Part shown: positions 17,729 to 60,666 of the stretch, in pieces | Layout: each line of letters begins with the position of its first letter | Numbering within the stretch: the first letter of the stretch is position 1 | From: Eledone cirrhosa | Lineage: Eukaryota | Length of the DNA: 64,000 nt | Direction: 5' to 3' | Assembly (NCBI GenBank): GCA_964016885.1 | Contig: OZ024741.1 | Coordinates: 266,290,001-266,354,000 of the forward strand | Program-made: the position numbers and the translations under genes | The notes under the pieces: model-generated | The model's database searches: none | What the model was told of the DNA's origin: nothing | What the model saw: only the letters and a program-made list of their open reading frames with translations

Positions 17729-18169
17729 TTTCAAACATACGTACATATAGACCTACATATAGGTACATAGTTGGTTAGATAAATAGGTAGATAGATGTGT
17801 GTGCATTATATATAAGACATTCAGATTTAAATAAAAAGAAACGATAGATGAGATAAGTAGAAAAGAACGCAAGAGAAAAATATGCAATAAATAAGATGTA
17901 AACTAGTTTCTATATTTTTTATAGAAGCAATTCACATGGAAAGACAATTACAGTCAACTAATTTAACAAGTTATGATGGCGGCAGAGTGGGCGAGGGAAG
18001 GGGAGATAATTCATGATAGATGAATTGAATAAAGTATCTGTGTCTCGACTGGACTAACGGTTGCCGAGTTCATATCTCGTTACTGGCATACTTTATAACA
18101 ATGTATATAAGCTATGTATAATTAATAAATACCTTAATGTGAAGGTATTGCTTTGTGTTCAATTTATAT

Positions 18170-18432
18170 TTATTAAATGTAAAGGATGCAATGAAGATTA
18201 TATAGGACAAACTAAACTCACACTCAGAAACAGAATGACAGTTCATCGCCAACAATTACGAGATCCAACCACGAGACGGATACCACATCTAGACATTTGC
18301 GCAAGTAATAAGACACCCAAATTCCAAGTCTTCCCATTTTACCTTTGCGCTAACAATACAACAGAACAAATGCGAATAAATAAGGAAAATATGTTTATTC
18401 AAAAATATAGACCAACATTAAATAAGGTTTAA
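18170..18432 (+). pseudogene. Penelope-like element GIY-YIG endonuclease C-terminal fragment
   Basis: IKCKGCNEDYIGQTKLTLRNRMTVHRQQ...HLDIC...KENMFIQKYRPTLN: CxxC, YIG, R..H, E..FI...P.LN. 5'-truncated, no RT. Confidence 0.88.
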
Positions 18433-19512: not shown

Positions 19513-19757
19513 AACCAAATAAATATATATATTTTTAAAAAAAATAAGACTTCAGTTGCATTTTCGATTTCATCCCTTTTTCTTTATACTTTCACTCGTG
19601 TAGGACACCTCGGTTATTTTTCATTTTGTAAAAAAAAAAAACCTCACTTTCTAATATATATATATATAGGAAAAGACTCTTTTCTTATTACCCACTTTAC
19701 AAACAACTTAAGTATCGAGTACTCTGGTGTGTTATGGTCTACCTGGTTTCTTACCAC

Positions 19758-19800
<43 letters not shown>

Positions 19801-20732: not shown

Positions 20733-20741
<9 letters not shown>

Positions 20742-21349
20742 AATATGGGTGAGAAGAATACTGCTGGTTGCACATGGATAACATGTTATAAAATGAGTCC
20801 CTCATCAGTGATTTACCAAACGATCATGGGTATTTCATCGCATTAAAAATCATATACCTCACGTTGGAGCGATAATAACTAAAATAAGTTATTAGGACAA
20901 TAGAAACGCGTAAAGCGAGTGAGACAAGTAAACAACACAGGGGGAAGCTAACCGAAGATGGAAATAAACACAAGCAACATAGTTATTCTTTCAGCATAAG
21001 CTGTGTGAATATATGCGCGAGTCGAAAACAGACCTTTCGCTAGTGAATCCGGTGTTAGAAAGAAGGAAAACCGTTTTCACAGCGAACGGGAGGAAGAAAG
21101 AAGGGGAGAAACAGGGACTGAGTGAGTGGGAGTGCGAGGAAGAGGTCAGTAGAGAGAAAATGTTAACTGACATGGCAGAGGGGACAAAAGAAATTAAGAG
21201 AAACAGAGAGAACGAGGGAGCAGTAAGAGAGAAAGAGAGAAACACAGAATTGCAGTTTGGGTAAATATATGAAAAATATGGGTGAGAAGAATACTGCTGG
21301 TTGCTCATGGATTACATGTTATATTGGTAAATCACTGATGAGGGACTCA
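20733..21349 (-). mobile_element. ~530-nt non-coding (TA)n-inserted element, copy B, with tail duplication and fold-back
   Basis: Homologous to 21915-22575 and 35489-35950. 21265-21323 repeats 20733-20790; 21324-21349 is an inverted copy of ~20794-20819. Confidence 0.8.
20797..20898 (-). ncRNA. Candidate non-cyclically permuted (pseudoknotted) hammerhead, copy B
   Basis: gtcc taataact..agttatta tcgc t ccaacg tga GGTAT A tgattt ttaat gcga t GAA ATACC catgat cgtttgg t aaatca CTGATGA g ggac. Confidence 0.75.
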
Positions 21350-21373
21350 CTATATATATATATATATATACAC

Positions 21374-21640
21374 ATAACGAAGGAGTTGTGGTAAGGAACC
21401 AGATGGACCATAACGCACCAGAGTACTCAATACTTAGGGTAGTAGAGTGGGTAATAGGAAAATGTATGACCCCGATGGCAGAGCTCAAGCCATTTCGACG
21501 TCTATTTCTGGACTAAATTAGAATTTTTAGCGTGGTAAAAAAAAGGGTATTTTTTTACCACGCTAAAAATTCTAATTTAGTCCAGAAATAGACGTCGAAA
21601 CGGCTTGAGCTCTGCCGTCAGGATCATACACTTTCCTATA
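21374..21640. mobile_element. Fold-back PLE-like 3' fragment carrying the 3' half of a type I HHR
   Basis: Arms 21455-21544 and 21550-21638; gtc-GAAA-cggc-ttgagctct-gccg-TC. Same family at 19670-19762, 22873-23135 and 26750-26950. Confidence 0.78.
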
Positions 21641-21846: not shown

Positions 21847-21918
<72 letters not shown>

Positions 21919-21970
21919 AGAAAAATGGAGAGCTGCGTGGTTACACATGGGTTACATATGAATAAAATTA

Positions 21971-22072
21971 GTCCTTCATCAGTGATCTTCCAACTTTCAT
22001 TGGTATTTTATCGCTTTAAAAATCATATACCTCTAGTTGGTGCGAGCAATAACTAAATAAAGTTATTGGGAC
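21971..22072 (-). ncRNA. Candidate permuted hammerhead, copy A (G12 mutated to A)
   Basis: gtcc caataact..agttattg c tcgc a ccaact aga GGTAT A tgatttt taaa gcga t AAA ATACC aatgaa agttgg aagatca CTGATGA a ggac. Confidence 0.65.
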
Positions 22073-22474
22073 AAGTAAAATAGGGTGAAACGAGCGAGAC
22101 GTGTAAACAAACAACGATGGTATTGCAACGGAAAGATAGGAAGAGACAAGTACATGATATCTGTAAGCTTAAGTTTGGTGAAATCATGGACGAGAGATAC
22201 AGACCATCCGACATGGGTGAGATGTGAGCGAGAAAAGGATTTCACACAGGTCAAACGGAAGGAAATGAGAGAGGGGGAGAAGAAGAGAGTGAGTGAGTGG
22301 AAGTGTGGGGAAGAGACCATCCGAGAGAGAGTGTGACTGGCAGAGGGGGTAAAAATAAGGTGAGAGATACAGAGAGAGGGGAAGCAGTAAGAAAGAAACA
22401 GACAATCGCAGCTGAGGAAAAAATATAAATATGAGAAAAATTGAGAGCTGCGTGGTTGCACATGGGTTACATAT

Positions 22475-22568
22475 AACTTTATTTAGTTGTTGCTCGCACC
22501 AACTAGAGGTATATGATTTTTAAAGCGATGAAATACCAATGAAAGTTGGAAGATCACTGATGAAGGAC
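22475..22568 (+). ncRNA. Candidate permuted hammerhead, inverted partial copy with intact core
   Basis: GGTAT(22508-12) A tgatttt .. gcgat GAA ATACC(22533-37) .. aagatca CTGATGA(22557-63) aggac. Lacks the 5' gtcc strand. Confidence 0.65.
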
Positions 22569-22599
<31 letters not shown>

Positions 22600-22872: not shown

Positions 22873-23130
22873 ATAACGAAGGAGATGTGGTAAAGAACCA
22901 GATGGACCATAACACACCAGAGTACTCAATACTTAGGGAAGTAGAGGGGGTAATAGGAAAAAGTATGACCCCGACGGCTATTTTTGGACTAGACACAACA
23001 GATTCCTACAACAACTCCATAGCAAAATAACATGGTATGAAAACACCAACGACATCATGGTGCACTCGAACAAAACTAGTCCAGAAATAGCCGTCGAAAC
23101 GGCTTGAGCTCTGCTGTCGGGGTCATACTT

Positions 23131-24714: not shown

Positions 24715-24764
<50 letters not shown>

Positions 24765-24770
<6 letters not shown>

Positions 24771-25754
24771 GAAGAGAGAAGAAACATTTAGATATAATTA
24801 GTAATAAAATGTATCATACCTAAACTGCTCCTAAATTCCTCGACTACGTAGTTTCGTGGCATAAACAAAAACAATATATCAAAGATATAGAGTCCTTGCG
24901 AGGTCTGCCGACATATCAAGAGGATACCTCATTTTACTAGTCTCAAGAACGCGTCTACACGACGTGAGAAAGAATCCCAAAAGGCGGAGGGGGAGATAGT
25001 CACGCGATATAACGGTCGAGAAACAGAGCTAAGCCTCTTATAACCCCGAAGAAAATACCACGGAGGCGGAGGGGGTATTTATATCGAGGCCGTAGAAGAG
25101 GTGGTGAAGAAGGCGAGAAGTATGAGTAATGGAAGCTTTCCAGCTGTCCCCACACTTCAAAGTTTGCTCGACCAGAGGGAGTTATTAACAATATATTTAG
25201 AAACACACAGATACATGCGGACACACACACATATATACATGAATGCATCCGCACCCACCTCTTCTACGGCCTCGATATAAATACCCCCTCCGCCTCCGTG
25301 GTATTTTCTTCGGGGTTATAAGAGGCTTAGCTCTGTTTCTCGACCGTTATATCGCGTGACTATCTCCCCCTCCGCCTTTTGGGATTCTTTCTCACGTCGT
25401 GTAGACGCGTTCTTGAGACTAGTAAAATGAGTTATCCTCTTGATAAGTCGGCAGACCTCGCAAGGACTCTATATCTTTGATATATTGTTTTTGTTTATGC
25501 CACGAAACTACGTAGTCGAGGAATTTAGGAGCAGTTTAGGTATGATACATTTTATTACTAATTATATCTAAATGTTTCTTCTCTCTTCATAATGTATTTT
25601 TAACTCTGATACTGGTTCAGTCTAGTTCAACTGAATTGGTCTGTCCCAGTCATTCATTGAGCAACATCGGTGAAGTTGGCACCCTTAACTCACAGTTGGG
25701 TGCGGATGCATTCATGTATATATGTGTGTGTGTCCGCATGTATCTGTGTGTTTC

Positions 25755-25843: not shown

Positions 25844-26743
25844 TACGAGGTGGGTCAGAAAAGTTCCAGGACTGATGTCACAAAAGATTTATTTCAAACC
25901 CAAACTTCACACTAAGAGTTTTCTCCTGCAAAGTAATCCCCCTGGAGTCTAATGCACTTTTCCATCCTTTTCTGCCACGCTTGCATGCACTCCTCGAAGG
26001 ATTCTTCCGGGATCCACCGCAGTTCCGTCGTCACGGCTTTTTTGATGTCGTCCACGTCTTCAAAACGGGTCCCCTCCGGGTCGTACTCGAAGATCCATGA
26101 CTCATCATCGGTGATGACTGTCCCTAGCAAGTCTGGTTCGGTTTCAAGACGCTCGAGGATGTCCTGGCACACTTCCATGCGTCGACCCTTCTGGTCATCG
26201 TTCAGCAGGTTTGGCACCATCTTCGCGCAGACTTTCCGCATGTCCAAATCTTCAGTGAGAATCTTCCAGACGCTGTCCCGATTCATGCCCAGCTCATTTG
26301 CCATCAGTCGAACAGTCAGCCGACGATGGCTACGCACCATCTGCCTGACGCGCTCAACGTTGACCTCAGTCCTGGTTGTTGAGGGTCTTCCGCTCCTGGG
26401 GTCATCTTCCACGTCCTTGTGTCCTTCTTTAAACCTCTTGCACCACTCAAAAACACGTGAGCGTGACATCGTCTCATCTCCATACACTTGCTGCAGCAAT
26501 CCCAGTGCTTCTGGCGGAGTTTTCAAGTTTGTTCGTTGCTCTGTGCTCATTGCTTGACGGCCTGAAACAGAGGACATGTATATAAAATGATGTAGAAAAA
26601 AGTTTGATCGCTGCAGAGAGCTAAGATTACAGTTACATATTCCAGGGGGATTACTTTGAAGGAGAAAACTCTTAGTGTGAAGTTTGAGTTTGAAATAAAT
26701 ATTTTGTGACATCAGTCCTGGAACTTTTCTGTCACACCTCCTA
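25844..26743 (-). mobile_element. Mariner (Tc1/mariner) element, internally deleted, with ~100-bp inverted ends, inserted in (TA)n
   Basis: Ends tacgaggtgggtcagaaaagttccaggact / agtcctggaacttttctgtcacacctccta; contains a transposase remnant. Confidence 0.93.
25912..26550 (-). pseudogene. Mariner transposase remnant
   Basis: HTH region SRSRVFEWCKRFKEG..DDPRSGRPST, AKMVPNLL (WVPHEL-like), VITDDESWIFEYDPE joined directly to GTRFEDVDDIK..W.KR..KCI..QGDYF. The segment with the 2nd and 3rd catalytic Asp is deleted. Confidence 0.92.
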
Positions 26744-26749
26744 TATATA

Positions 26750-26950
26750 TGACAAAGAAAGTGTGGTAAGGAACCAGGAGGGACATAACGCACTAGAGTA
26801 CTCGATACTTAGCGTAGTAGAGTGGGTAATAGGAAGAGTCAGGACACCGACGGCTGAGCTCCGGCCGTTTCGACAGCTAGATCCGAACAGTTCGGATCTA
26901 GCTGTCGAAACGGCCGGAGCTCAGCCGTCGGGGTCCTGACTCTTTTCCTA
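26750..26950. mobile_element. Fold-back PLE-like 3' fragment with half an HHR
   Basis: Hairpin centred on ccgaac-a-gttcgg (26889); gtc-GAAA-cggc-cggagctca-gccg-TC-ggggtc. Confidence 0.78.
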
Positions 26951-29359: not shown

Positions 29360-29759
29360 TTAGAAATATAAGCTATCGCCGTATTTTGACTAAAGAAATT
29401 AAAGAAATTATTTAGCCTGATAGTGGGGTTAAGAACCCTCGGAGAAATGGAAAATGATGAGTATTGACGTACATGGGTGTCGAACCCACATCTGCGGTTA
29501 TCCAGGCTACTGTGCTACCATTACACCAACACATCACCCGTCTTCTTCCATTCAAATTAGAAGCTATAATCTTAGCAAGTGTAATATGTCAAGTAAGAAT
29601 ATTTTCGAAACAGCGAGCGGGTTTGAAATTAGAAATATAAGCTAAGTTCTTAACCCCACTATCAGGCTAAATAATTTCTTTAATTTCTTTAGTCAAAATA
29701 CGGCGATAGCTTATATATCTAATTTCAAATCCACTCGCTGTTTCGAAAATATTCTTGCT

Positions 29760-34012: not shown

Positions 34013-34055
34013 TATTCCTGATGAGGAGACTGCGAAAGTCTAGAGACGTCGAATA
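34013..34055 (+). ncRNA. Degenerate minimal hammerhead
   Basis: tattc-CTGATGA-ggagact gcgaa agtcta-GAGA-cg-TC-gaata. Confidence 0.55.
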
Positions 34056-35485: not shown

Positions 35486-35488
35486 AAA

Positions 35489-35950
35489 TATGAAAATAAT
35501 AGGCTGCCCGTTGCAAATGGTGGGGCATGTGAAAAAGTAGGTCCTTCATCAGTGACCCTCCAACCGTCCCAGGCATTTCATCGCTTTAAGGGCCATATGC
35601 CTCAGGTTGGTGCGAACAACGGCTAAAAAAAGTCGTTGGGACACGTAAACAAAGGGGACGCCAGGGTAACAAACAAAAAAGTTTAAGCAACGGAAAGTGA
35701 GAAGAAATAGACAAGTCCCAGATCTCTATGAATATAAACTCGGTGAAATCGTGAACAAGAGACAAAAGACCATCAAACCTGGTTGAAATGTGAGCAAGGA
35801 AAGAATTTCGCCCAAGTTTGACGGGGGGGGGGGGGGGGAGAAAAGAGAGGAGAAGAAGAAGAAGAAGAAGAAGAAGAAGAAGAAGAAGAAGAAGAAGAAG
35901 AAGAAGAAGAAGAAGATAAAGGGGTCTGGTCTACGAATTCGGTAAACATA
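35489..35950 (-). mobile_element. ~460-nt non-coding element, copy C of the permuted-HHR family
   Basis: Homologous to copy A across the body (e.g. gctcacat, gatggtc, gatttcacc, acttgtct, tttccgttgc); pyrimidine tract expanded as (CTT)n. Confidence 0.8.
35541..35642 (-). ncRNA. Candidate non-cyclically permuted (pseudoknotted) hammerhead, copy C, complete
   Basis: gtcc caacgact..agccgttg t tcgc a ccaacc tga GGCAT A tggccct taaa gcga t GAA ATGCC tgggac ggttgg agggtca CTGATGA a ggac. Confidence 0.78.
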
Positions 35951-55966: not shown

Positions 55967-56620
55967 TTTCTTTATTAGCCACAGGGGCACAAAAGAAGGG
56001 GACAAATACAAAGGGGGAAGTTTACATACAATAAAAACGTGTAAAATGTTATCACAGATGGAATTTAAAAGTTAGTCGATTTTCCCCAATAGAGGGAGAC
56101 AGTTTATATGGGTAACACAGACCCCCGAAAAAAATGTGCAACCCTCATCTCCAGGAGTACGAAGAGCTTGTACTCCTTTCCTCTCCTCCTCCTTTTCCTC
56201 AACCTACAGGCTGATATAGAGAGAAGGCCCATTCACTCGGGCCATTCTCGCCACTTTCACCCACCTTTCATAAAACTTGCTGGGGTACAGCACCTCTCTC
56301 TCCATCCTGATTCTTCTTCCAAAGTGGTATTTGAAAAAAAGAATCAGTTGTTGGCCGGAGAGAAAGGTGTCTGACCTCAGCCCTTTCAACCTTGTCCACC
56401 ATACAACCTCTTTCGCCATAGCTATCACACAAAGGAAAACCGCCTCTCCTTCGTTTTTGAAGGAGGGTGGCGGTTTGATCATGACAATGGACTCGGTGGT
56501 CAACTGGATTGGTCCCACCCGCGACAATAGTCGTTCTACATAGCCCCACAGGTCAGTGACGCCCGGGCAGTGTATGAATGCGTGCGCGACGGTTTCTTCG
56601 TCTCGCACGCACCTCGGACA
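55967..56620 (-). mobile_element. Tx1/L1-like LINE, 5'-truncated copy 1
   Basis: CPRCVRDEETVAHAFIHCP zinc knuckle through the 3' UTR ..gtggctaataaagaaa; bounded by (TAGA)n. Confidence 0.9.
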
Positions 56621-56664
56621 TAGATAGATACATAGATAGATAGATAGATACATAGATAGATATG

Positions 56665-56915
56665 TTTCTTTATTAGCCACAGGGGCACGAAAGAAGGGGA
56701 CAAATACAAAGGGAGAAGTTTACATACAATAAAAACGTGTAAAAATATTATCACAAATGCAATTTAAAAAATTAGTCGATTTTCCCCAATAGGGGGAGAC
56801 AGTTCATATGGGTAACACATACCCCCGAAAAAATGTGCAACCCTCATCTCCAGGAGTACGAAGAGTTTGTACTCCTTTCCTCTCCTCCTCCTTTTCCTCA
56901 ACCTACAGGCTGATA
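56665..56915 (-). mobile_element. Tx1/L1-like LINE, copy 2 (3' UTR only)
   Basis: Same 3' UTR; bounded by (TAGA)n. Confidence 0.88.
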
Positions 56916-56937
56916 CATAGATAGATAGATAGATATA

Positions 56938-58431
56938 TTTCTTTATTAGCCACAGGGGCACAAAAGAAGGGGACAAATACAAAGGGGGAAGTTTACATAC
57001 AATAAAAACGTGTAAAATGTTATCACAGATGGAATTTAAAAGTTAGTCGATTTTCCCCAATAGAGGGAGACAGTTTATATGGGTAACACATACCCCCGAA
57101 AAAAAATGTGCAACCCTCATCTCCAGGAGTACGAAGAGCTTGTACTCCTTTCCTCTCCTCCTCCTTTTCCTCAACCTACAGGCTGATATAGAGAGAAGGC
57201 CCATTCACTCGGGCCATTCTCGCCACTTTCACCCACCTTTCATAAAACTTGCTGGGGTACAGCACCTCTCTCTCCATCCTGATTCTTCTTCCAAAGTGGT
57301 ATTTGAAAAAAAGAATCAGTTGTTGGCCGGAGAGAAAGGTGTCTGACCTCAGCCCTTTCAACCTTGTCCACCATACAACCTCTTTCGCCATAGCTATCAC
57401 ACAAAGAAAAACCGCCTCTCCTTCGTTTTTGAAGGAGGGTGGCGGTTTGATCATGACAATGGACTCGGTGGTCAACTGGATTGGTCCCACCCGCGACAAT
57501 AGTCGTTCTACATAGCCCCACAGGTCAGTGACGCCCGGGCAGTGTATGAATGCGTGCGCGACGGTTTCTTCGTCTCGCACGCACCTCGGACAGATCTTTT
57601 TTGCAGGGTCCCTGCCCGGGCGCCCATGTCTGTAGAGCTTGTGGGAAGGCTCGCCTCACGAACGGGGCCCACACCGGTTGTCCGGTGAGGAATACGTAGA
57701 GATGCCGCAGCCTGAGCGCGTGTTTGCGCATCGCCAACCACGGCATCCCCAGCCCTCCGTTAGAAGGGTGTTGGCAGCAGATGGATCTTCTCACCAAAGG
57801 AGCCCGCCTCTTCCAAAGGAATCGGAAGAGCGCGCGCTCCATTTTGGCGAGCGTTTTGGCTGGACAAGGCACGACGGTCAAGCGGTAGTAGATGGCGGAC
57901 GCTATAAAAGTGTTCGCCACCTCCGCTCGACCTTTCAAGGATAGTTTGCACTCGGCCCACTTCTGGGTGAGTGCAAACACCTTGGCCGTCACTTCGTTCC
58001 AGTTCTTCTCCACCTGGAGGTCCGGACCAAACCAGACCCCGAGCAGCTTTACCGGTCCTTCCGTCCAGCGTCCGACGACGCCATCGGAAGGTATCAGTCT
58101 GCCTCTCCACGATCCGAGTTGCAAACCGATGGACTTGTCCCGGTTCAGCTTCGCTCCTGTGAGACTTTCGTATTCCTTTAGTAAGGTGCCGACTTCCTCG
58201 ATTTGCGAGGCGCTCGACACCATTACTGTCACGTCGTCGGCGTAGGCCGACGCCGCTTTCCGCAGTCCCGGTTCCAGAGGGATGCCCTGCAATAGCTCCA
58301 GCTTCCGCAGTAGTGGCTCGAGAGTCAGTACGTACAGAAGGGAGGAGAGAGGGCATCCCTGTCGAATGGATCGCGTAATATGGAACGGCTCCGAGAGGTA
58401 ACCGTTCACCTTGACCCTTGAGCAGATGTTG
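56938..58431 (-). mobile_element. Tx1/L1-like LINE, copy 3 (partial RT to 3' end, internal deletion)
   Basis: RSIRQGCPLSSLLY, AYADDVTV, KLLGVWFG, GGLGMP motifs. Confidence 0.92.
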
Positions 58432-58460
58432 ATAAATAGATAGATAGATAGATAGATAGA

Positions 58461-60666
58461 TTTCTTTATTTGCCACAAGGGCGCACAAGAAAAGGGGACA
58501 ATACAAAGACACATGCCGAGGATTTTACATGCAGTCGTGTAAAAAAAAAAAAAAAAACAATTATAACAATCGAAATCCCTAATAGGGGGGGAGATGTCAC
58601 AAATGGGTTGTTTAATACCCCGTCGATAGAACAACCCTCAACTTCAGGAACGTGTTGTGGAAGTGCTCCCTTCTTCCTTTTGCTCTCTTCTTTAACCTAC
58701 AGGCTTATAAACAGAGAAGGCCCAATCACTCGGGCCATTTTCGCTTCATTCACCCACCGTTCAGTAAATTTACTGGGGTGCAGTGCCTCTCTCTCCACAG
58801 CGAGACAAGTTGTGGGAAGGCCTGTCTCACAAACGGTGCCCACACCGGTTGGTCGGTGAGGAATACGTGAAGATGCTGTAGCCTCAGCGCATGTTTGCGC
58901 ATCATTAGCCACGGCATGCCCAGCCCTCCGTTGGAAGGGTGTTGACAGTAACTGGAAGTGCATGCGTTCCATCTTGGTGAGGTATTCACGGGGACAAGGC
59001 ACGACAGTCAAGCGGTAGTAGATGACGGACGCTATGAAAGTGTTCGCCACCTCTGCTCGACCTTTCAAAGACAGTTTGTACTCTGCCCACTTCTGGGTGA
59101 GCGCAAATACCTTGGCCATGACCTCGTTCCAGTTTTTCTCCACCTGGAGGTTTGGACCGAACCAGACCCTGAGCAATTTTACCGGTCCTTCCGTCCAGCG
59201 TCCCGACGACGCTGTCAGACGGCATCGGTTTGCCTCTCCACGTTCCGGGTTGCAAACCGACAGACTTGTCCGGGTTCAGCTTTGCTCCTGTGAACCTTTC
59301 GTATTCCTGTAGTAGGTTGCCGATTACCTCGATTTCCGAGGTTTTCGACACCATTACCGTCACGTCGTCGGCATAAGCCGACGCCACTTTTCGCAGTCTC
59401 GGTTCTAAAGGATGCCCTGAAAAATCTCCAACTTCCGCAGTAGTGGCTCTAGAGTCAATACATACAGAATGGAGGAGAGAGGGCATCCCTGTCGAATGGA
59501 ACGCGTGATTGCGAACGGCTCCGATAGGTAGCCGTTCACCTTGACCCTCGAGCAGATGCTGTTGTGCATTGCCTTGATCCAGCCTCTGAAAACGGAATCG
59601 AAACCGGCCGCCTTGAGAACCGCTTCCAAGTATCGGTGGTCGACCCTATCGAATGCCTCAGACTGATCTAAATTGACCAGAGCCCCACCGAAGCCGGGTT
59701 TACACCTCACCCTCTCTATGATGCATCGCATGAGGTGGAGTTTGTCGTGTATGGACCTGGTCGGAATTGCACACGTTTGCGCTTTCCCTACCAGGTTTTC
59801 GACGACAAGCGCCAGCCTCGTTGCTAGCATCTTGGCCAAAATCTTTAACTCTGTGTTGAGCAGAGTTATAGGCCTGAAATTGTTTATTTCGTCCCCCTTG
59901 TTCTCGTCTTTCCTGATCAGCGTTACTACGCCCTTGCCTGCAGAACTGGGAATTGTCCCGTTCTACTGCCAATTGCAGTAGACGGCTTCGAGGACGCCAG
60001 AGAACAAGTCCGGCATGCCTATGTAAAACTCATAGGCTAGACCAACTAGACCGGGTGACTTGCGTTTACTGCAGCGGCCCAGAACGTCCCGTATCTCAGT
60101 GTCCGTGATCGGTCTTTCGCAGAACTCGGCGTCCGTGTTCGAGAGACGCGGCAGGCCGTCGAGGTATGAACTAAAGTCCATTGCCCCGTTCCGCTCACCG
60201 TCGTTCTGCTCAAACAGTCGTGCAAAGTGCTGCTGAAAGGCCACGCACATTTGCTTGGGGTCATGTAGCACGCGTCCGTTTTGGTCTTTCAAAGACCAAA
60301 TTGTGGACTTGTTGCCACTTTTTGCCTCCGCCACTCGGGCCCAGTTGACAGCTTTCGCTCCTTCGTTTCCTAGAGCACGTGTTTTGCTTCTGACCACGCA
60401 GCCTTCGTGTTTCGCGTCGAAGAACTCGTCCAGTGCCGTTCTCGATGCTAGCACTCTAGCTGCATTGCCACTCCTAAGCGCCTCTTCTACTTTGGCTACT
60501 AGTTCTGTTTCTGATTTGTTTTTCTCTAAAGCTAATTCTCTGCTAAACCCTATCGATTGAGAGAGTACCACCATCTATTGTTGACAATGGCTCCCGTCAA
60601 CTCTTGCTTAACTAATCTACTTATCCGTTCATTGTAGGCTTTTCGTGCCGGCAACGACACGTTCAA
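58461..60666 (-). mobile_element. Tx1/L1-like LINE, copy 4 (sister subfamily; frameshifted ORF2 from post-endonuclease linker through RT)
   Basis: KSPGLVG, LDQSEAFDRVDH, IRQGCPLS, AYADDV motifs across frames; different 3' UTR; bounded by (TAGA)n. Confidence 0.92.

Follow-up and report, generated by a model that had tools for sequence, protein, structure and literature searches.

The window, as we call the whole 64-kb stretch of DNA analysed here, looks like repeat-rich animal DNA, and its minus strand carries between 20797 and 20898 the parts of a hammerhead ribozyme in an order that does not correspond to types I-III. This raises the question of which structure these parts form and to which kind of element they belong. 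In the framework of Eckert et al. 2023 (PMC10085705, consulted in part), a hammerhead is split into the blocks S, G, and C, whose orders CGS, GSC, and SCG represent types I-III and whose orders SGC, CSG, and GCS are non-circular; the blocks are assumed never to be interrupted. On the minus strand of the locus, hereafter copy B, the site is followed by GAAA and then by CUGAUGA, i.e. SGC, which excludes types I-III (CGS, GSC, SCG). Reading the plus strand was rejected because the core is present only on the minus strand, and tandem copies cannot restore the cyclic order, since S-G-C repeated gives only SGC, GCS, or CSG.

The first-pass annotation had described the locus as a complete permuted hammerhead, and we recovered every feature it named in the place it had assigned. 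Read from its 5' end, the domain (20797..20898, minus strand, as for all parts below) opens with the P1 strand GUCC (20895..20898), whose partner GGAC (20800-20797) lies immediately 3' of G10.1; this helix holds both ends of the domain together and is unchanged in 3/3 complete copies. It is followed by P2 (20873..20894), the junction hairpin that had been called a perfect 8-bp helix, and indeed UAAUAACU (20894-20887) pairs with AGUUAUUA (20880-20873) over 8 bp. Three of its eight pairs are changed on both sides among the copies, and its closing pair is U-A in copy B versus C-G in copies A and C. Next come the 5' strands of P3 (UCGC, 20869..20872; partner GCGA at 20841-20838, just 5' of U11.1 and GAAA) and of P4 (20862..20867; partner 20822-20816, with one bulged U in copy B). 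Block S (20847..20858) comprises the stem III 3' strand (20858-20854, reading GGUAU), A17 at 20853, which is the H17 of copy B, and the stem I 5' strand (20852-20847). Block G (20829..20837) contains U11.1, GAAA (20836-20833), and the stem III 5' strand, with stem III formed by 20858-20854 and 20833-20829. Block C (20801..20814) consists of the stem I 3' strand, CUGAUGA (20808-20802), and G10.1. Stem I pairs UGAUUU (20852-20847) with AAAUCA (20814-20809), as annotated. A 5-nt linker separates the stem I 5' strand from P3 and a 6-nt linker separates stem III from P4.

The domain thus has SGC order with a four-way junction in place of stem II. Stem II itself is reduced to one pair, in which G10.1 (20801) faces U11.1 (20837) as the annotation had stated, and this pair is set in a junction of the core, P1, P2, and P3. 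The 10.1-11.1 pair is G-U in copy B and A-U in copies A and C; the strands flanking it then join different helices, one P1 and the other P3. The register of the junction varies, as copies A and C favour the 10.1-11.1 pair and copy B can slide by one step with unchanged pair types. P3 is predicted to substitute for stem II. If P3 is counted as stem II, P4 takes a position equivalent to that of the contact helix between stems I and II, and we infer this role for it. By likeness to known hammerheads, cleavage is predicted between 20853 and 20852.

This domain sits at the 3' end of a repeated element, where it is followed by a tail of ~55 nt and then by (TA)n. Insertion B (20737..21357, minus strand) is a ~530-nt non-coding unit composed of body, ribozyme, and tail, with (TA)n on both sides. 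Two further pieces lie at its 5' side: a second tail (21272-21323, 50/52 identical to 20739-20790) and, in inverted orientation, a piece of the ribozyme (21324-21356, 31/33 identical to 20787-20819). Insertion A (21916..22579, minus strand) is built in the same way; its main domain (21971-22072) carries a G12 to A change at 22009. An inverted piece of insertion A (22476-22579, plus strand), which lacks the 5' strand of P1 and spans a predicted cut site at 22513, keeps GAAA, so that the G12 change represents decay after insertion. Insertion C (35487..35820, minus strand) has a complete, GC-rich domain (35541-35642) with H17 at 35596. These three insertions and two inverted part-copies are the only related copies in the window. 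No reading frames of at least 120 aa were found in insertion B, and the 139-aa frame of insertion A gave no Pfam match. The predicted cut site occurs twice in insertion A, at 22026 (minus) and at 22513 (plus, in the inverted piece). Since a linear monomer cut beforehand could not template such a doubled site, either the template was a circle or had not been cut, or its copying involved jumps; the doubled site fits a circular or an uncut template and does not choose between them.

The partial tandem terminal repeat, inverted 5' piece, tail, and microsatellite target of insertions A and B follow the build of Penelope-like elements (PLEs); the consulted parts of PMC8557442 describe the same features for PLEs, Naiads included, with (TA)n as the target. 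No autonomous partner element was found in the 64-kb window. Separately, a GIY-YIG endonuclease fragment lies at 18058-18429 (plus; Pfam PF01541, E 9e-06). It probably stems from the C-terminus of a canonical PLE, and as its frame ends like a C-terminal endonuclease, it would not be of Naiad type.

We asked how well the structure is kept among the copies. The hammerhead core (CUGANGA, GAAA, and UH) is complete in copies B and C and in the inverted piece of A, and the linker lengths are nearly constant. The annotation had held that copy B retains core, spacing, and strand order, and in agreement with this, 0/11 fixed core positions differ between B and C. In a four-row alignment of the window copies, pairing holds in 132/134 cells (98.5%), and 7/35 pairs show changes on both sides, located in P2, P4, stem I, and stem III. 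None of 500 shuffles matched the observed pairing and covariation, and control structures slid along the alignment were paired to 30-47%; the pairing test may lean upward, as the sequences are related and supplied the structure that they score, and only three independent lineages are represented. Between B and C, 20/68 paired non-core sites differ, and yet copy C forms 34/35 pairs. When the same number and kind of B-C changes were scattered at random, a mean of 25.5 pairs was left and 0/100,000 trials reached 34; the corresponding p values were 0.008 for A-to-C and 0.00006 for B-to-A. Eight pairs are altered on both sides between B and C. For example, the P4 pair 56-96 is G-C in B, U-A in A, and C-G in C, all of them Watson-Crick. 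Stem I (6-7 bp) shows two and stem III (5 bp) one such two-sided change. P1 and P3 are invariant across the window copies and thus provide no covariation of their own; because they never vary among the window lineages, their support comes from the Naiad ends described below.

An architecture descriptor comprising the core, stems I and III, P1, P2, and P3, and leaving P4 free, matched only copies B and C in the real window, compared to one match in 40 shuffled windows and 0/29 metagenome loci. Rfam at gathering thresholds identified no hammerhead in the window; its single match was tRNA-like (29465-29535, minus, 36 bits) and is possibly a SINE head. Folding restricted to nested pairs gave the domain a z-score of only -1.6, which is expected for a structure with several pseudoknots. 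The minimum-energy fold of copy B is a different rod (-22 kcal/mol), and in nested folding, P4 and stem III reach a mean pair probability of 0.11 in copy B. Minimum-energy nested folds were dropped as a model because they ignore covarying pairs. Overall, we are highly confident that the structure of the domain is real.

Selection on structure in the source elements, which the annotation had proposed, is supported by the compensatory changes, the B-to-C scatter test, and the absence of core differences (0/11). The contrast between domain and body is moderate. Domain identity over all columns is 86/103 for B-A, 75/103 for B-C, and 79/102 for A-C (83, 73, and 77%), compared to 122/196, 109/202, and 123/188 (62, 54, and 65%) over the neighbouring 180-190 nt of body. 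The respective Fisher p values are 0.0001, 0.002, and 0.04 in tests that count gaps and take columns as independent. On aligned columns only, domain and body differ less (85 vs 70% for B-A, 74 vs 66% for B-C, and 77 vs 71% for A-C); gaps make up much of the contrast, with 0-2 gap openings in the domain versus 4-14 in the body. In addition, the far, low-complexity end of the B body agrees with copy A at 74-83% of the aligned columns. The statement that the body is much more diverged than the domain is therefore right in direction for the adjacent body and somewhat overstated in size, given the gap effect and the far end. Copy B had been set apart as AT-rich from a GC-rich copy C. The GC contents of 0.35 and 0.52 agree with this, but copy A is AT-rich as well (0.34), so that C and not B is the compositional outlier.

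The element family is abundant, as judged from the matches to 20745-21260 in sequencing data (1207 contigs in X1, 9 in X4, 46 in X5, and 2449 reads in X8). Two contigs whose labels name two other organisms (X4 record 12, 148 nt; X5 record 18, 93 nt) match copy B letter for letter, so that its letters are not an assembly error. Among the best 24 of 194 loose ends, one X8 group of 194 reads has C-G as the closing pair of P2, another X8 group of 215 reads has a block C like that of copy A, and a third of 213 reads carries CUGACGA, in which the core is altered only at the free position 7. Among the best 40 of 144 variants, a selection from which the absence of core variants cannot be read, a frequent change at 20871 converts a C-G pair of P3 to U-G, which still pairs and may be due to CpG decay. 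Nine X1 contigs among the matches listed contain CUGAUUA and are presumably dead copies, and two X5 contigs among the matches listed contain head-to-tail joints. Depth in X8 was roughly 390-830 per bin over the ribozyme end versus 8-60 in the mid-body, a contrast to which we give little weight, as 5' truncation and RAD cut sites can produce it. Searches with family patterns gave 29 matches in metagenome contigs, and neither BLAST nor the architecture descriptor connected any of these with the element; in viral contigs and in prokaryote genomes, the patterns gave 0 matches. Five of the metagenome contigs (L003, L005, L026, L028, and L029) are related to each other and show CUGAUGA followed by a hairpin, with GAA or GAAA within the printed stretch in 4/5; they are perhaps an unrelated family of ordinary hammerheads.

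How does this form compare with published hammerheads? According to the consulted sections of PMC10085705, natural non-circular RNA permutations were first described in 2023 in environmental sequence without a known host. Type SGC was known only from metatranscriptomes, and apart from one weak bacterial GCS, no non-circular form came from the genome of a known organism. SGC RNAs cleave in vitro, at rates of 0.007-0.19 per min, and depend on a helix that connects stem I with stem II; those with short linkers cleave during transcription. With type SGC as published there (HRIMA-1 and variants), the window form shares the S-G-C order, the complete core, the short linker from stem I to the strand before GAAA, and a further helix that bridges stems I and II on their other sides, which would here be P4 with 6 bp. 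In contrast, stem II of type SGC runs without a break, its ends are open, and it lacks a multi-stem junction, whereas the window form has a stem II of 0-1 pair in a four-way junction; the 5' strand of this stem II now lies at the front of the RNA, and a closed link leads from the contact helix to stem III. Block C is not uninterrupted either, as the strand pairs with the 5' end (P1) after 10.1. Since the stem II strand is split off block C, a descriptor demanding a continuous stem II would miss the domain. The window form shares the anti-cyclic ring of type CSG, known there from two metagenomic sequences, but is opened inside block C and not between G and C. It would work like SGC and yet is a distinct form.

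Single features of the domain have precedents. Natural hammerheads with a stem II of a single pair and with U-U at 10.1-11.1 have been reported, and no junction at stem II is described in the consulted part of that source (Perreault et al. 2011, PMC3088659). The window element resembles the carriers of type I hammerheads in PLE terminal repeats and animal non-LTR retrozymes in being a non-coding, ribozyme-bearing, tandem-prone PLE satellite with the ribozyme at the same element position, but their hammerheads have the ordinary cyclic order, a weak stem III, and often act as dimers (PMC4209133 and bioRxiv 10.64898/2026.07.22.740005, both in part). Animal PLE hammerheads often cleave poorly in vitro, and dimeric action has been described for them (PMC4209133). 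Tandems in the window are only partial, as opposed to the tandem units of non-LTR retrozymes with a ribozyme in each, and the retrozyme survey, in its consulted part, covered type I only (bioRxiv 10.64898/2026.07.22.740005). Elsewhere in the window, there are seven ordinary type I (CGS) hammerheads (8954+/8872-, 10686+, 40503+/40349-, 52619+, and 7573-). They belong to another short Penelope-like family, with two sets arranged as inverted pairs, and provide an internal control for the usual order. In a literature search that ran mostly outside subscription journals, non-circular hammerheads were not tied to Naiads, PLEs, or animal genomes, and the term "type-SGC" was found only in PMC10085705. 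A 2026 NAR paper merely cites the permutations (PMC13725137), and nothing comparable is shown by Forgia et al. (PMC10162972), both as far as their consulted parts extend. What is new here is a hammerhead of an animal retroelement in which the order is non-circular and a four-way junction takes the place of stem II.

Naiads are 3.4-4.4 kb retrotransposons that encode GIY-YIG and RT domains. Craig et al. 2021 reported them to be without canonical hammerheads, yet many are marked "HHR_core" or "HHR_half_core", and according to the methods, some own a core that fits no stem descriptor (PMC8557442, in its consulted parts). We parsed the CUGANGA matches and the Naiad 3' ends in File S5 of that paper by eye. 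Anti-cyclic hammerheads were recognised in 20/54 Naiad consensus sequences, a count that covers 38/54 3' ends and in which motifs broken across line ends escape the search. The junction form, with the order P1, hairpin, P3, P4, S, G, C, is present in nine Naiads (Chem-3, Amil, Aacu, Anas, Movir-2, Plae, Obim, Ovul, and probably EuTe; the names EuTe, Smim, Parc, and Asuum are taken from the file order), whose hosts are jellyfish, coral, acanthocephalan, crustacean, and octopus. Every letter pattern differs between these ends and the helices persist. Esco and Bfor appear as SGC with P3 and P4, with P1 and P2 not clear. Two arachnid ends are also SGC, Naiad_Ptep without any stem II and a second one, probably Smim, with an odd stem II. 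Seven nematode Naiads (Nbra-1, -2, -3, Hcon, Hpol, Parc, and Asuum) read as CSG with full stem II and contact helix. Five ends, three of them probably from Darwinula and the others Ppla and Skow-2, have a core for which no fold was found by eye, and the core is absent in 13 viewed 3' ends, several of which are incomplete. The ordinary hammerhead order was not seen in any of the viewed ends. The 3' ends of Naiad-1_Movir, Naiad-4_Chem, and Naiad_CGi lack a hammerhead core and appear to resemble twister ribozymes. Another structured-looking motif is common to Chem-1 and Chem-2 (File S5). Naiads may thus swap ribozyme classes.

Closest to the window form are Naiad_Obim and Naiad_Ovul, which have the layout 60-80 nt before the end and, by eye, short stretches like the hairpin loop of copy B. 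Judging from this likeness to Octopus Naiad ends, the window may come from a cephalopod. In Plae and EuTe, both 10.1 and 11.1 are C, each paired to a G of the front strand, which results in a perfect four-helix junction without a 10.1-11.1 pair. The window element shares with Naiads the partial tandem, the inverted 5' piece, the tail, and the (TA)n target, and with the nine junction-form Naiads also the ribozyme layout at the 3' end, but is ~530 nt long without an ORF, versus 3.4-4.4 kb with GIY-YIG and RT. An ORF with N-terminal GIY-YIG, the CxC motif, and RT, as expected of a Naiad, is lacking in it, so that it is at most a non-autonomous Naiad dependent. Such a dependence is probable, and the anti-cyclic hammerhead apparently represents the ribozyme missing from many Naiads.

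Taken together, we consider it fairly likely that the locus is a hammerhead core in SGC order whose stem II is a single pair set in a four-way junction, that the PLE ending 3' in this core is short and non-coding, that the core cleaves itself after A20853, and that it was inherited from and moved by a Naiad. Self-cleavage as such is probable by analogy to known hammerheads. In the proposed fold, stem III, the core, and P3 would stack as one column, with P3 under the core where stem II would sit. Stem I would lie alongside, tied to P3 by P4 in the contact-helix role proven for type SGC, and P1 would stack on P2 as the other junction arm. The RNA would be cut 3' of A17. The form can be pictured as an SGC/CSG ring in which no link is left open and the RNA ends have shifted into P1; because of this shift, the CUGAUGA block is split from the stem II strand, which places the form outside the six orders of Eckert et al. 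as given in the consulted text. Cleavage might serve to trim read-through or tandem transcripts to unit length, as the consulted part of PMC4209133 proposes for PLE hammerheads. After the cut, stems I and III, P1, P3, and P4 would hold both products and favour re-ligation of the monomer to a circle, and the enzyme would probably be supplied by a Naiad.

Several other readings were weighed against this one. Pattern fitting, in which chance short helices in AT-rich repeat DNA surround a CUGAUGA, could appeal to helices of only 4-8 bp, the nested-fold z-score of -1.6, and the scoring of the structure on its source copies. The shuffled windows (one descriptor match in 40 versus two in the real window), the compensatory changes, and the recurrence of the order in Naiad ends whose letters are unrelated have largely refuted this reading, and we give it next to no credence. 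The fold might also be real and the nuclease lost, with the 3' structure kept as a docking signal for the reverse transcriptase or endonuclease of the element. Its location at the 3' end, where such signals are expected, the near loss of stem II together with the missing 10.1-11.1 pair in some Naiads, and the success of Naiads in multiplying while thought to be ribozyme-free (PMC8557442, in part) would agree with such a role. However, it is the catalytic bases (CUGANGA, GAAA, U16.1, and non-G at 17) that are fixed while the stems turn over, both in the window and in the 20 Naiad ends, and the one variable core position is the free position 7. We consequently regard a docking signal as unlikely.

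Cleavage as a dimer, in which two copies swap strands and the crossed helices form between molecules or tandem units, appears about as improbable, perhaps slightly more so. In the monomer, P4 has to span the far ends of stems II/I and III once both linkers are closed, and such a geometry was already hard to explain for Eckert et al. (PMC10085705, in part); dimeric action is on record for animal PLE hammerheads (PMC4209133, in part), and head-to-tail joints occur in run X5 among the matches listed. On the other hand, stem III has its full length of 5-6 bp and is no palindrome, the copies hardly differ in linker length, and the published short-linker SGC RNAs cleave during transcription (PMC10085705). 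The alternative to which we concede the most, while still doubting it, concerns not the fold but its carrier, namely a non-autonomous element of another Penelope-like clade that gained the ribozyme module by template switching. No coding trace in the body ties the element to a clade, (TA)n is also targeted by elements of the Hydra clade (PMC8557442, in part), and the ribozyme is better conserved than the body, as for a swapped module. Yet the Hydra and Chlamys hammerheads tabulated in File S2 of PMC8557442 are, in the consulted part, all of the ordinary order, as are the other PLE hammerheads of the window, and the anti-cyclic order was seen only in Naiads, with the closest layout by eye in the two Octopus Naiads. 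A Naiad-derived, self-cleaving domain remains our preferred reading.

Extended beyond this locus, the results lead us to lean, with some reserve, towards a wider view: Naiads of animals as different as comb jellies, cnidarians, nematodes, arthropods, and cephalopods would carry active non-circularly permuted hammerheads, including a seventh topology with the core on a four-way junction and no stem II; CSG, SGC, and the junction form would mark steps along a single lineage; and the RNA, once cut, would close again to a circle that is reverse-transcribed more than once around. If true, non-circular RNA permutations are old and abundant in animal genomes and sit in animal chromosomes, within a named, very abundant retrotransposon clade that has a protein tree. 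Whether they originated by rearrangement or convergence, posed as an open question in PMC10085705 (in part), would thereby become testable on a phylogeny. It would also reverse the published claim of hammerhead-free Naiads and make less convincing the inference drawn from that claim, namely that PLE hammerheads may be mere passengers (PMC8557442, in part). A core on a four-way junction, sometimes without the 10.1-11.1 pair, would represent a new variant of the fold, of use to structural studies and to the engineering of ribozymes. As the domain was missed by standard descriptors and Rfam, invertebrate ribozyme counts are probably too low.

The window contains further repeats. A short, (TA)n-flanked family (21378-21635, 22873-23130, 26750-26950, and 19700-19760) has head-to-head inverted ends and a GAAAC...GUC hammerhead half, to which the CUGAUGA half at 34018 may belong. 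A mariner-type transposase remnant (HTH_32, HTH_48) lies at 25915-26808 (minus), and broken reverse transcriptase frames of a non-LTR retrotransposon (RVT_1) at 56200-60600 (minus). Finally, an inverted repeat at 24757-25602 has 348-nt arms that are 99% complementary and separated by a 150-nt spacer.
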